A stretch of DNA of 64,000 nt from Minisyncoccota bacterium (GTDB lineage: Bacteria > Patescibacteriota > Minisyncoccia > Phycocordibacterales > UBA918), in NCBI GenBank assembly GCA_041389025.1, contig JAWKSP010000001.1:478663-542662 (forward strand), given 5' to 3'. Under the pieces are notes generated by a model. That model was not told where the DNA came from. It worked only from the letters and a program-made list of their open reading frames with translations, and ran no database searches. Both the position numbers and the translations under genes were made by a program. Shown piece by piece: positions 13,949-17,623 of the stretch; position 1 is the first letter of the stretch, and each line of letters starts with the position of its first letter.

Positions 13949-14054
13949 CCTTTAAGGCCGGAGAAATGCTCGTAAACATCGCTTTTCTCTTCGATTCCTG
14001 ACGAAAGCAAAATTATTTGCTTTCTCCTCAGGCACCATTAAAAATTCTTTTTAA

Positions 14055-14129
14055 TGGTGCCCTCGGCAGGAATCGAACCCACATTTCCTCCTTAGGACGG
14101 AGTAGTTCTATCCATTGAACTACGAGGGC
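14055..14129 (-). tRNA. tRNA-Arg (anticodon CCU)
   Basis: Minus strand GCCCTCGTAGTTCAATGGATAGAACTACTCCGTCCTAAGGAGGAAATGTGGGTTCGATTCCTGCCGAGGGCACCA. Cloverleaf folds with a 7-bp acceptor, D arm GTTC/GAAC, anticodon loop GUCCUAA, T-loop TTCGATT and encoded CCA. Confidence 0.8.
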
Positions 14130-14286
14130 ATGTAATAATATTTGCACAGAGTTCGATTCCAACGGAATCGATTCTTACAGAATCTGTACAGGTTGTCGGT
14201 ATTTTACTTCCTAACGTCGTAAAATACCAGTCAACCTTCTTCGACAGTCTACTTAAGACTGTCTCAGCCCACACGTCCTCCTGATA

Positions 14287-14320
14287 GACGGAGTAGTTCT
14301 ATCCATTGAACTACGAGGGC
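14287..14320 (-). repeat. Orphan 34-nt copy of the tRNA-Arg 5' half (acceptor through anticodon-loop position 34)
   Basis: GCCCTCGTAGTTCAATGGATAGAACTACTCCGTC is identical to the first 34 nt of the intact tRNA-Arg and then diverges (TATCAGGAGGACG...). No complete cloverleaf. Confidence 0.6.
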
Positions 14321-14390
14321 TGTCTGAAATGTTTTTGTACTTTATCATAATCTGGGAAAATTGGCAGGGGATTGTTATACTTACTAGACT

Positions 14391-14690
14391 ATGTCTACAT
14401 ATCAAGATAATGATGAAAATGAAATTAAAGATTTAATCAAAGAAAACCAGCGTTTACTGATTGAAAATAATCAACTTCTGAGACAGATGCGCCGCCACTC
14501 CATCATTGGGGCAATCTTCCGTTTTTTATGGTTTGTCTTAGTGATAAGTATTCCTGTTTATATCTACTTTCAGTATGTTCAACCAAACTGGGAAAATTTA
14601 ACTACAAAAATCAATGAATTAGAACAAACTTCAGCTGAGGTGGGGGAGATTAAGGAGTGGTTTAACTCACTTAATTTGCGACCTAGGTAA
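14391..14690 (+). CDS. Hypothetical small membrane protein (coiled-coil N-terminus, one TM)
   Basis: 99-aa ORF between the tRNA genes with a hydrophobic segment (IIGAIFRFLWFVLVISIPVYIYF). No clear Shine-Dalgarno. Confidence 0.4.
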   Translation: MSTYQDNDENEIKDLIKENQRLLIENNQLLRQMRRHSIIGAIFRFLWFVLVISIPVYIYFQYVQPNWENLTTKINELEQTSAEVGEIKEWFNSLNLRPR

Positions 14691-14774
14691 GCTTAAGTAA
14701 CATAGATAAATGTTTTAAACGGTTGAAATAAATGCTTAAACAGGCTAGAATAGCCTGCACAGTAATAAAGAAAA

Positions 14775-14850
14775 GCTTGGGTAGCTCAGTTGGTAGAGCG
14801 CTTCCCTGAAGAGGAAGATGTCGTCGGTTCGAGCCCGACCCCAAGCACCA
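14775..14850 (+). tRNA. tRNA-Phe (anticodon GAA)
   Basis: GCTTGGGTAGCTCAGTTGGTAGAGCGCTTCCCTGAAGAGGAAGATGTCGTCGGTTCGAGCCCGACCCCAAGCACCA. Canonical cloverleaf with encoded CCA. Confidence 0.88.
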
Positions 14851-14899
14851 GTATATAAAATGCCTCCACATGGAGGTGTTTTATATACTGGTGCTTGGG
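14840..14899. repeat. 21-bp perfect inverted repeat containing the tRNA-Phe 3' end, flanking a GC hairpin (probable terminator)
   Basis: cccaagcaccagtatataaaa ... (gcctccacatggaggt) ... ttttatatactggtgcttggg. Confidence 0.55.
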
Positions 14900-15029
14900 A
14901 AGAAAGGTGTTAATACACCTTTCGTTCGGGCTCGCACCACAAGAGTATTTCCATTTTTATACTTCTTTCAGTCGTTAAAAATTAGGTCAAAAGCGCAGTC
15001 ATGTCGCACGGAGCGGAGCGAGTACGACA

Positions 15030-16470
15030 GACGAGCTGGCTATGAAAAAGCTGTGAACAACTAAAATATTAAGTTTTCTAACCCTTTCTATTTTTTGATA
15101 AGATATTATGAGAGACTTTGGCAACACGAAGGTAATCAAGTATCCTTCACACTTGGTTTCGTAACCCATGCGGCTATCCGTGCTAAAAAGCACAAGGTGT
15201 CATACGTATTACGGGGTCTCAATCGGGGTCACGGTGTCACAGCACCACCCTCGCTACGAGATCTCCACTCTTCGTGTTGCCAGAATCTCCCATATCAGAA
15301 AAGGTCCGAAAGGGCTCTTTTCTTTTAACCAGATACCACATGATAGTGAGCATCTTTCGAGCTAAAGCAACCCGAGCCACCTTAGAACCCTTTTTATCTT
15401 TGATTCTCGAATAGAATGTATATAACCTACCGGCTGAAGGTCTGATCTGACAGGCTGCTTCCACCATAATAGATCGCAGAAACGGTGAGCCTTTTCTGGT
15501 AATGTGTCCAAATCGCAACTTCCCTCCAGAAGAATGAGATGAGGATACTAATCCAGCGTAACTCGCTAACTGTTCTGGAGTCTTGAATCTTTCAAAATCT
15601 CCAACTTCAGCAATAATGGTTAGAGCGGTTAGTTCAGCTACACCAGGTATACTCATCAATACCTTGGCACGTTCATCTATTTTAGCTTTTGATTTGATAA
15701 TAACATCAAGTTCTTTGACTTCACTATTCACAAAATCAATGGTTTTTATTAATGATTCAACCTCTTTTTTATATAACTTATGGAAAACCTGATTCTTGAT
15801 CCAGAGTTGTCCTTGTTTTCCAAACAGGTCAGTAACAGGACTTTCTAAACCATGTTTCCAGAGAATGCTATGGACTCGATTCTTAGTTCTGGTTCGTAAA
15901 CGAATATAGAACATTCGCCAACGTACCAACTCACGCAGGTCTCTAACAGCCGGTGGTGCTAGGTATGCAGTGGCGATAAAATCTATACGAAGTAGTTCAG
16001 CGATAATTTCCGAGTCAACCTTATCGTGTTTAAGTCGACTTGCTGCAATAAGTTTAGTCTTAGCCGGATCTATCAGTTTAACTGTTATTCCAGTACTCTC
16101 CAGTACTTCAGCAAACCAACCCCATTGTGATACCGGTTCAATTCCGGCACATACTTTACTTATATTGATTGGTATCTGTTTTAGAGTAATAAGAGTATCT
16201 TGTTTGGTGGTTGGTACCTTACCTTGAAAAATTCTATTCTTATTTGAATCAATAAGTGTCCAATATCCGAAGGATTTATGCAGATCAATTCCTAAATAAT
16301 ATTCATTCATAGTACTAGTGTTACATTAATAATAATCAACTATTAATATCGACCTATGTATAGGCTAGCACTTTTTCATGACATCGGGGTCGAGAGTACT
16401 TAGTAAAATATAAGCTTGCGAAATATTTTACTTAGTAACTCGTGACCGAATCCTACCGCCGGAGCTAGAC
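15030..16470 (-). mobile_element. IS110-family insertion sequence; boundaries approximate
   Basis: Contains a DEDD-type IS110 transposase flanked by ~200 bp 5' and 3' non-coding regions. Both flanks end in cggagc-containing sequence (15018-15030 cggagcggagcgag; 16456-16468 ccgccggagc). No terminal inverted repeats, as expected for this family. Confidence 0.6.
15237..16310 (-). CDS. IS110-family transposase/recombinase (DEDD RuvC-like N-domain + C-terminal Transposase_20 domain)
   Basis: N-terminus MNEYYLGIDLHKSFGYWTL (GIDxxK). SIPGVAELTALTIIAEVGDFERFKTPEQLASYAGLV helix-hairpin-helix motif typical of IS110/IS902/IS1111 transposases. Confidence 0.85.
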   Translation of the reverse strand: MNEYYLGIDLHKSFGYWTLIDSNKNRIFQGKVPTTKQDTLITLKQIPINISKVCAGIEPVSQWGWFAEVLESTGITVKLIDPAKTKLIAASRLKHDKVDSEIIAELLRIDFIATAYLAPPAVRDLRELVRWRMFYIRLRTRTKNRVHSILWKHGLESPVTDLFGKQGQLWIKNQVFHKLYKKEVESLIKTIDFVNSEVKELDVIIKSKAKIDERAKVLMSIPGVAELTALTIIAEVGDFERFKTPEQLASYAGLVSSSHSSGGKLRFGHITRKGSPFLRSIMVEAACQIRPSAGRLYTFYSRIKDKKGSKVARVALARKMLTIMWYLVKRKEPFRTFSDMGDSGNTKSGDLVARVVL

Positions 16471-16500
16471 AAATTAAGTTTTTTATGATTTAATCAGGGT
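16311..16500 (-). ncRNA. Candidate IS110 5' non-coding (bridge-RNA-like) region; unverified
   Basis: 190-nt non-coding leader upstream of the recombinase gene with a 15-bp near-perfect stem (tacttagtaaaatat / atattttacttagta). In characterised IS110-group elements this position encodes the bridge RNA. Confidence 0.2.
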
Positions 16501-16535
16501 TGATTTCCATTTTCTAAATAAGAAGGAGGTGTACC

Positions 16536-17150
16536 TTGGAAATAATTAATTGGATAGTTATATCCACCATAATCCTACTGGTTTGGATAGTTAATTACAG
16601 TGTACTTGCCTGGAAACGGGAAGTATATCCAAATCCTGTGAGTTGGTTCGTATGGACTGTAGTTGGCTTAGCCCTTTTTCTCACTGCCGAAGCATCTGAA
16701 GCAAAAGAAGTTTACTTTGCTACAATTATTTCAGCAGCAGGTCCTGCTATAATACTTGTTATTATTCTCCTTCGTGAGACAAACAGAATCTACAGCTTAT
16801 CATTACGTGAAAAATTATGTCTCACATTCGCACTTATAGGATATAGTTTATGGTTTATTTTAGGAGAAAACCCTGAATTAGCTCAATGGTCACTGTACTG
16901 GATGATTTGTGTTGATTTTATAGCACTTTGGCCTACACTTGAGCAAGCAATTAAAAAACCAGAATCTGACAAGCCTATTCCATGGATAATATTCGGTCTT
17001 GGTTACGGTATAACTGGATTAGCAATCATAGACCATACTGTGGCAAACTGGGCATTACCAGCCTATATGTTTGCAGGCTCATTGGCGGTAGCAATACCTC
17101 TGGTATTAATAAGGATAAAGAAAAGAGTCTTACTTAAAGAATGGTGGTAA
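16536..17150 (+). CDS. Hypothetical 6-TM membrane protein
   Basis: TTG start preceded by a strong SD (aagaaggaggtg). 204 aa, mostly hydrophobic helices. Confidence 0.55.
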   Translation: MEIINWIVISTIILLVWIVNYSVLAWKREVYPNPVSWFVWTVVGLALFLTAEASEAKEVYFATIISAAGPAIILVIILLRETNRIYSLSLREKLCLTFALIGYSLWFILGENPELAQWSLYWMICVDFIALWPTLEQAIKKPESDKPIPWIIFGLGYGITGLAIIDHTVANWALPAYMFAGSLAVAIPLVLIRIKKRVLLKEWW

Positions 17151-17216
17151 AAGCCGCACCCTAGAAAACCAAATCTACGGAGGCGGTTTTCTTTTTTATA
17201 CCATATTCCCCACCAC

Positions 17217-17247
17217 ACAAGTTCGAACACCCTCCACCCAGCGGAGC
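17217..17247 (+). repeat. 31-bp direct repeat, copy 1 (acaagttcgaacaccctccacccagcggagc), immediately followed by a TTGACA -35 box
   Basis: 30/31 identical to 18442..18472. Part of a CCAGCGGAGC-core repeat family that also occurs at 17786-17798 (degenerate), 17841-17852 (inverted) and 17955-17973, and resembles the IS110 left-flank sequence 16451-16468. Confidence 0.6.
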
Positions 17248-17335
17248 TTGACATAGAACTAATTTGAGTGTTTAATGACACCCAAGCAAACACGGGTGTG
17301 TTTGCATTTGTTCTACTCAAAATCGGAGGTATCCA

Positions 17336-17623
17336 ATGGCAGTCAGTCAGGAAGTCAAGGATTTCAAAAACCCGTCTGGGTACTGGAAGCACGATGGTTC
17401 CTTCTCGGTCGAGCTGGTGCCAGATGCGGACAAAAGCATGGTGCCAACCTCGGCAGAAATCAGGGGCGACACCGTGCACGTCTGTCACGGACGTATCAAG
17501 CAAACGATGGGGAGTATCCAGCTCTATTCCTACGAATCCCAGTTCTGCTGGGGCTATCCTCGCATCAAGGTCATCCGAGATGGTCAGGGCAAGCTGTTGT
17601 GGGTGAACTACAACTACCGCTGA
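17336..17623 (+). CDS. Hypothetical 95-aa protein encoded in a GC-rich (~54% GC) segment; likely horizontally acquired
   Basis: Consensus-like promoter (TTGACA-17-TTTAAT at 17248-17276) and SD (ggaggt) precede the ATG. Normal amino-acid composition. Followed by a GC-rich hairpin terminator. Confidence 0.5.
   Translation: MAVSQEVKDFKNPSGYWKHDGSFSVELVPDADKSMVPTSAEIRGDTVHVCHGRIKQTMGSIQLYSYESQFCWGYPRIKVIRDGQGKLLWVNYNYR

Follow-up and report, generated by a model that had tools for sequence, protein, structure and literature searches.

A Patescibacteria insertion sequence of the IS1111 type with a predicted guide RNA at the 3′ end of its transposase gene, inserted in a tRNA-linked module

The closest described systems to the element treated here are the IS1111 elements with a seekRNA (ISEc11, ISPa11, ISKpn4 and ISPst6; Siddiquee et al., 2024, PMC11187229) and IS621 of the IS110 group (Durrant et al., 2024, PMC11208160; Hiraizumi et al., 2024, PMC11208158; structure 8wt6). 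In the IS1111 group, subterminal inverted repeats of 7–17 bp are separated from the termini by extensions of 7 nt and 3 nt (PMC11187229), and a long non-coding region (NCR) lies downstream of the gene that codes for the transposase (tnp), whereas in the IS110 group the RNA is encoded upstream of the recombinase gene (PMC11187229, PMC11208160). The order of the guides differs as well, since in IS1111 seekRNAs the complement of the top strand precedes the match to the bottom strand, which is the reverse of IS110-type RNAs (PMC11187229). Here, we describe an insertion sequence (IS) of this family located in a stretch of 64,000 nucleotides (the window) of a Minisyncoccota bacterium (assembly GCA_041389025.1, contig JAWKSP010000001.1, positions 478,663 to 542,662). 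The host genome (G000) belongs to the Patescibacteria, or candidate phyla radiation (CPR), and consists of 1.04 Mb in 11 contigs, of which C1, C2, C3 and C4 are mentioned below. On comparative sequence evidence, we interpret the element as an intact IS1111-type member of the IS110 family carrying a guide RNA at the 3′ end of tnp, and we assign this reading a probability of roughly 0.88.

The recombinase gene (15237..16310, minus strand) encodes a transposase of 357 aa with DEDD (RuvC-like) and Tnp domains, which match the Pfam families PF01548 (DEDD_Tnp_IS110, E 3e-19) and PF02371 (Transposase_20, E 7e-24), in agreement with the IS110/IS1111 assignment made in a first-pass annotation of this DNA. 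The residues that we take to be catalytic in the IS621 recombinase (D11, E60, D102, D105 and S241) are aligned opposite D9, E58, D96, D99 and S261, and across 30 homologs the conservation of the latter is complete or at least 90%. The alignment with the IS621 recombinase (PDB 8wt6) is itself weak (E 1.9e-14). The best plasmid-borne relatives match over the full length at about 33–35% protein identity and include many IS110-family genes, one of them annotated as IS1328.

The ends of the element were set by three comparisons, with a second genomic copy, with a 78%-identical element found elsewhere (L011) and with an unoccupied paralogous site. The second copy (copy 2, L002), located at C1:154480-155841 of the host genome, matches the window copy over 15038-16392 except for four single-base homopolymer indels and one core base, and the identity breaks off at 16392-16395, ahead of a stem-loop. 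L011, from a metagenome-assembled genome annotated as Taylorbacteria (recombinase 78% identical in amino acids), and L020 (87%), both of them from other samples, have identical termini within other flanks and, as copy 2 does, depart from the window sequence past GGGGTCG. In silico excision of 15039-16386 restores CGAGCTGGGGTCGAGAGTACTTAGTA, which is identical over 26 nt across the junction to the unoccupied paralogous site C1:281490. By these comparisons, which include the alignment of IS copies proposed as a check in the first-pass annotation, the whole IS spans 15039..16386 on the minus strand (1348 bp, left core copy included). Three of the copy 2 indels fall within the coding sequence (CDS; window-equivalent positions 15318, 15371 and 15765) and the fourth is a U in an RNA hairpin loop. 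Copy 2 could be frameshifted or the indels could reflect assembly error, as the homopolymer pattern is typical of long-read errors, and its status as a pseudogene is uncertain.

In tnp orientation, the IS starts with CGATGTC-ATGAAAAAG and finishes with CTTTTTCAT-AGC. The left (16369..16377) and right (15042..15050) subterminal inverted repeats, both read on the minus strand, form a perfect 9-bp pair lying 7 nt from the start (CGATGTC) and 3 nt from the end (AGC) of the IS, and they covary among relatives (CATGCAAA/TTTGCAT and CATGTAAA/TTTACAT). The element had previously been described as having no terminal inverted repeats and long non-coding ends; the repeats are present, in subterminal position, and only the 3′ end is long, with about 198 nt (15039-15236) compared with 75 nt 5′ of the CDS (16311-16385/6). 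A core dinucleotide flanks the element on both sides, its right copy at 15037..15038 (CA in tnp orientation, from the junction comparison) and its left copy at 16385..16386 (CG), both on the minus strand. According to the junctions of 26 loci, this core is of the pyrimidine-purine (Y-R) type, CG, TG or CA, being CA at the unoccupied site C1:281490 and CG at copy 2. A “CC” core with a gap of 2 nt between the core and the right guide had been considered; it was replaced by the Y-R core one base further, which gives a common register for the junctions and guides across loci. Insertion is thus site-specific with a shared core and proceeds without a classical target-site duplication, as is characteristic of the IS110 family.

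The comparative signals for a guide RNA all map to 15120..15281 on the minus strand, at the 3′ end of tnp, and not to the 5′ leader in which the first-pass annotation had placed a bridge RNA; the presence of such an RNA is supported, its proposed location is not. For this comparison, the CDS end and the 3′ non-coding region of 26 loci (45-87% protein identity) were aligned and the helices were tested on the 22 non-identical sequences; a contig scan of the sampled genomes gave two relatives, and the comparative set came from a metagenome scan. The alignment displays a conserved architecture with short hypervariable segments, and fold, helix covariation and guide/target covariation together point to a bridge/seek RNA domain of 162 nt, which overlaps the final 42 nt of the CDS and its stop codon and has a predicted minimum free energy of -59.5 kcal/mol (z -4.1). 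Its closing stem of 12 bp pairs GGCAACACGAAG (15270-15281, within the CDS) with CUUCGUGUUGCC (15120-15131) and encloses a basal stem (GAUCUCG/UUGAGAC), a target-binding loop with a distal hairpin, a donor-binding loop with a distal hairpin and a further hairpin. The distal hairpin of the target-binding loop (GGUG-CUGUGA-CACC, 15233..15246, minus strand) holds the tnp stop TGA (15237-15239) in its loop, and its stem covaries (GGUG/CACC, GGCC/GGCC, GAUG/CAUC, GAAG/CUUC, GGCG/CGCC). The distal hairpin of the donor-binding loop (UUGUGC-UUUUU-AGCACGG, 15178..15195, minus strand), likewise recognized by covariation, is paired in 97.7% of cells with compensatory changes in two of its four pairs, and it is here that copy 2 differs by one loop U.

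Over the 25 reliably alignable pairs, 94.9% of positions were paired in the 22 relatives; the shuffled controls reached 81%, and those with displaced partners 30-46%. Compensatory changes occurred in 14 of these 25 pairs, and the covariation score was 0.427 against 0.156 when shuffled, with none of 500 shuffles as high. The GUAAU/AUUAC closing stem of the donor-binding loop and the fourth hairpin, which are seen in single sequences, were left out of these counts as MAFFT misaligns both. The RNA was assigned to the tnp strand because of invariant G-U pairs. The fold of the 3′ NCR alone (15038-15240) gave an unremarkable z of -0.74 and a misleading basal stem, as the CDS contains the 5′ strand of the actual closing stem, and was not retained. 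In most relatives, the tnp stop is a TGA inside GGUGAUCUCG, whereas the open reading frames (ORFs) of the window copy and of L011 are 25 nt longer and end in the loop of the first hairpin, so that the right-target guide is coding sequence here.

The hypervariable segments of the predicted RNA correspond to the flanks and to the right end of the element. The left-target guide (LTG), UGACCCCGAU (15222..15231, minus strand), has the same sense as the left flank CGACCC followed by the core CG and the first bases of the left end (LE), AT, and is identical to the window’s own left junction at 9 of 10 positions. Across ten distinct guide classes, its stretch of 7 nt on the 3′ side of the first hairpin (UGACCCC at 15225-15231 in the window) shows a mean identity of 6.0/7 to the locus’s own left flank, compared with 2.5 for shuffled pairings (0 of 20000 as high), and the three bases after it (GAU or AAU) correspond to the second core base followed by the first two left-end bases. 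The right-target guide (RTG), UAGCGAGGGU (15247..15256, minus strand), belongs to a segment of 10-11 nt lying 5′ of the first hairpin, inside the CDS, and has its complement, CTCGCT, on the right side of the core. When its reverse complement was compared with the core and right flank in nine guide classes, the mean longest run was 5.3, against 3.1 when shuffled (0 of 5000); the match extends over CTCGCT both in copy 2 and in the unoccupied site and is limited to CTCG in copy 1.

The left-donor guide (LDG), AUAGCCGCA (15169..15177, minus strand), consists of AUAGC followed by the core CG, in the same sense as the right end (RE) of the element (...CATAGC plus core). It tracks this end among relatives, as it reads AUGGUU in L026, L027 and L048, in which the RE is CATGGT(T/C), while ATAGCC is found at both places in all others. 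A candidate right-donor guide (RDG), UAUGACAC (15197..15204, minus strand), contains AUGACA, the exact 6-nt complement of the LE sequence TGTCAT in the window, and AUGACAC pairs with six of the first seven left-end bases. In the RNA, the segment complementary to the top strand comes 5′ of the one that matches the bottom strand. When the predicted loops were compared with the flanking core, as had been suggested beforehand, the LTG and the RTG followed the flanks and the LDG followed the right end in two sequence states, while the result for the RDG was weak.

The target of the element, CGACCC[CG/CA]NCTCG, is a conserved motif of tRNA-linked modules and is found at copies 1 and 2, with the variant CGACCC[CG]CCTCA at L011. 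The proposal that the IS had inserted into a copy of a local repeat family is thereby confirmed, the repeat being such a module. The sequence YGAGNNGGGGTCG, which is the plus-strand form of CGACCCCNNCTCR, has six unoccupied occurrences in the host genome compared with none for the reversed control, and is present 1-12 times in 17 of 20 relatives. In contrast, among 401 genomes of the order only four yielded a homolog of the recombinase, and the five same-genus genomes of that sample yielded none; the IS is therefore a rare and probably recent guest homing to a widespread resident motif. On the target side, outside the IS, lies the repeat (G)GGGTCGAG-hairpin-CTCGTGACC (16387..16449, plus strand), which contains the stem-loop at 16398-16438. 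The corresponding unit, GGGGTCGAG-hairpin-CTCGTGACC (GGGGTCG-hairpin-CGTGACC), occurs free of the IS at C1:158943, C1:163509, C1:281496 and C2:229676 and at the end of C4. Where a tRNA gene could be called, these units lie, all in one fixed orientation, 100-250 nt downstream of it (Gly, Arg-TCT, Arg-GCG, Leu-TAG, Leu-GAG, Phe, Val), and each is then followed by a copy of that tRNA’s own 3′ part.

The module that holds the IS lies downstream of tRNA-Phe(GAA) (14775..14850, plus strand; ARAGORN and Rfam). In the general order of the modules, which accompany many tRNA genes on their downstream side, a terminator hairpin comes first. Next is the 3′ part of the tRNA as an inverted copy, split by a conserved hairpin (AGAAAG...CTTTCG), then a GCGGAG spacer, the GGGGTCG-hairpin-CGTGACC unit and the 3′ part again as a direct copy, which begins at C56 of the T-loop or at the extreme 3′ end. 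Composite examples are found in the window (14851-14933) and at L062 (C1:281377-281580), L064, L060, L061 and L009, and the layout was confirmed on five loci. Possible origins of the modules would be long target duplication, att-type integration or template switching. In the window, the module is closed by a tRNA 3′-end remnant, GAATCCTACCGCCGGAGC (16450..16468, plus strand), which, apart from one mismatch, equals the 3′ terminus of an intron-containing tRNA on C3. The “cggagc” sequences on both sides of the IS, formerly taken as related flanks, consequently have separate sources: the left one belongs to the module spacer (GCGGAGC is also present at L062, copy 2 and L060/61), while CCGGAGC on the right (16460-16466) is the 3′ strand of the acceptor stem of the tRNA remnant, and no duplication made by the IS is involved. 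In metagenome contigs of a wastewater study, the right-end side of the IS is joined to a third context (...GGATTCGAAAAGCGCAGCGATATTTATGAG/CGAGCTGG...), and contig C4 terminates exactly at the IS boundary, beside a tRNA-Phe remnant.

Several observations concern the surroundings of these modules. At C3:928-1251 (L058, minus strand), directly 5′ of a tRNA-like 3′ end, GGTTCGAATCCTACCGGCGGAGC, there is a group I intron (RF00028 in Rfam, 68 bits); we read the two as an intron-split tRNA that is uncalled by ARAGORN, and the remnant to the right of the window IS has its best match in this 3′ end. Inside the tRNA-Phe module (window 14934-14989) there is a 55-nt repeat, CACCACAAGAGTATTTCC...TTAAAAATTAGGTC, with copies of 80-93% identity at C1:421872, C1:92092, C1:124335 and C1:151289 and with other flanks in metagenome contigs; this probably represents a miniature repeat or insertion of its own. 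A tRNA-Arg(CCT) gene (window 14055-14129, minus strand) lies about 650 nt from tRNA-Phe, and the region is rich in tRNA genes and module repeats. With regard to other targets within the family, the largest clade of relatives, with the guide UCAAACC (L031, L032, L034, L036-L038, L040-L042 and L045-L049), inserts at ...GG(A/C)TCAAAC[CA]AAATGTCGG..., where the sequence is conserved and may encode a protein (...FWFDPTPQGKFM... when read on the reverse strand); this clade may thus home into a conserved gene, not a repeat.

The element shares with the IS1111 elements studied by Siddiquee et al. (2024, PMC11187229) the DEDD recombinase, the long NCR 3′ of tnp, the subterminal repeats with extensions of 7 and 3 nt and the insertion beside a palindromic repeat; the top-strand complement likewise precedes the bottom-strand match and overlaps with it in the target, the RNA being a predicted one in our case. 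It differs from them in its host, a CPR (Patescibacteria) genome of 1 Mb, in its target, which is a tRNA-linked module instead of REP sequences (repeated extragenic palindromes), attC sites or Tn21 inverted repeats, and in that the RNA domain reaches 42 nt into the CDS, which makes the RTG and one half of the closing stem coding sequence. With IS621 (PMC11208160, PMC11208158, 8wt6) it has in common two loops with two guides and a distal hairpin each, the aligned catalytic residues, a dinucleotide core common to target and donor and a repeat-associated target. In contrast to IS621, the gene has the RNA at its 3′ and not its 5′ end, the order of the guides in each loop is reversed (right guide first), the subterminal repeats are long and the core is of the Y-R type (CG) in place of CT. 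ISPpu9 and other REP-targeting elements of the IS110 family (PMC12288879) are also inserted in a repeated extragenic palindrome and have a small RNA gene downstream of tnp, although host and target are different and the palindrome here belongs to a module tied to tRNA 3′ ends. The apparent homing of an IS to tRNA-linked modules through a guide RNA would be a new feature.

A different idea is that the element is IS621-like, with a bridge RNA encoded by the 190 nt (16311-16500) that lie upstream of the CDS, including a stem-loop of 15 bp. The stem-loop at 16398-16438 does exist and folds, the 190-nt stretch has a modest z of -2.55 and the IS110 group carries its RNA upstream. However, the IS ends at 16386, only 75 nt of the supposed leader belong to it, and the stem-loop is not part of the element: the identity between copies stops before it, the unit that contains it stands without the IS in at least five places of the genome, and L011 and L020 have another hairpin sequence there. 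The true 75-nt leader showed no guide-like match to the target beyond words of chance size, and the covariation signals are all 3′ of tnp. We therefore give almost no credit to an upstream RNA. A very unlikely reading is that the 3′ region acts only as DNA, that is, as a recombinase-binding right end together with a C-terminal coding tail, the matches to the flanks having been copied from the target without any RNA guide. The domain is indeed partly coding, the subterminal repeats indicate some recognition of the ends, and the RNA data amount to a single contig inside tnp. Nevertheless, compensatory changes maintain four helices, the invariant G-U pairs would be A-C on the opposite strand, the guides sit in loops in the order of the experimentally proven IS1111 seekRNAs (PMC11187229), and the variable segments are 150-200 nt internal, not at the ends of the element.

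The alternative of a dead, immobile relic, in which the match between guide and target is historical only, is rather unlikely. It would be in line with the three single-base CDS indels of copy 2, with the presence of only 2-3 copies and of the element in 4 of the 401 genomes, and with perfect targets that are still unoccupied. In contrast, the ORF of the window copy is full-length with all catalytic residues, the two copies differ by homopolymer indels and a core base only, which points to recent spread or assembly error, and a third insertion context exists in the metagenome contigs.

Some results also speak against a functional guide RNA at the 3′ end of tnp. The two core-proximal positions of the RTG (GG) are unpaired with all four observed targets of the guide class (GA, AG, GC), so that the RTG pairing amounts to only 4-6 nt, and in a fixed register the pairing of the RDG with the LE is weak family-wide (4.2/7 versus 3.8 when shuffled, with values as high in 218 of 20000 shuffles). 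The closing stem has a 5′ strand that is partly coding, from which additional conservation could arise. A scan of 14000-17500 with Rfam 15 at E<=1 returned tRNAs and noise only, with no family over the RNA domain, and promoter- and terminator-like sites were no more frequent than in shuffles. The first-pass annotation had proposed looking for a circular junction and a junction promoter; neither was found, as no circle junctions or empty-site joints were seen in the contigs of four runs and no promoter-like site rose above chance. The sole contig from an RNA library (229 nt, 15633-15861; one metatranscriptome) lies inside tnp and could be DNA carry-over, and is thus no evidence either way on the expression of the guide RNA. 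Finally, the flanks of the window copy come from different tRNA modules (Phe on the left, the intron-tRNA-like remnant on the right), which could be due either to IS-mediated recombination or to an assembly mis-join across the repeated IS.

If the element is an IS1111-type IS with a guide RNA at the 3′ end of tnp, as we favor, its mechanism may be outlined as follows. The RNA would be made, probably from a processed tnp transcript, and, by homology to IS1111 seekRNAs and the IS621 bridge RNA, it would bind the recombinase and hold two internal loops. In the target-binding loop, the RTG UAGCGAG(GGU) on the 5′ side and the LTG (U)GACCC-CG-AU on the 3′ side would pair with both strands of CGACCC[CG]NCTCGCT, the model target being ACTCTCGACCC-CG-CCTCGCT, in a register that near the core is a putative one. 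In the donor-binding loop, the RDG AUGACAC and the LDG AUAGC-CG would pair with the joined ends of a presumed circular intermediate (...CATAGC-CG-ATGTCAT...), for which the model junction is TTTTTCATAGC-CG-ATGTCATGAAAAAG. Recombination at the Y-R core would then set the element at the foot of the palindromic hairpin in the module 3′ of tRNA genes. The order of the modules (antisense copy of the tRNA 3′ part, hairpins, sense copy) parallels that of the IS1111 target-binding loop (complement, hairpin, match), and the idea that the modules are themselves RNA-guided mini-elements of the same logic, which we think improbable, can be derived from it. In that case, CPR bacteria would have one guided-recombination system with two tiers, the IS and the modules, and the latter would represent safe landing pads for the IS or non-autonomous derivatives moved by a related recombinase.

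For annotation, this locus illustrates that the RNA-bearing end varies by subgroup within the IS110 family and that an element’s ends need to be mapped before a “leader” is called a bridge RNA. For the field, it provides a compact and comparatively well supported pair of an IS1111-type recombinase and its predicted guide in Patescibacteria, with about ten naturally reprogrammed guide classes and their targets. The overlap between coding and guide sequence and the apparent homing to tRNA-linked modules are its main points of interest. For the biology of CPR bacteria, the foot of the module hairpin would be a recognized recombination site, and the element may offer an independent handle on the modules.

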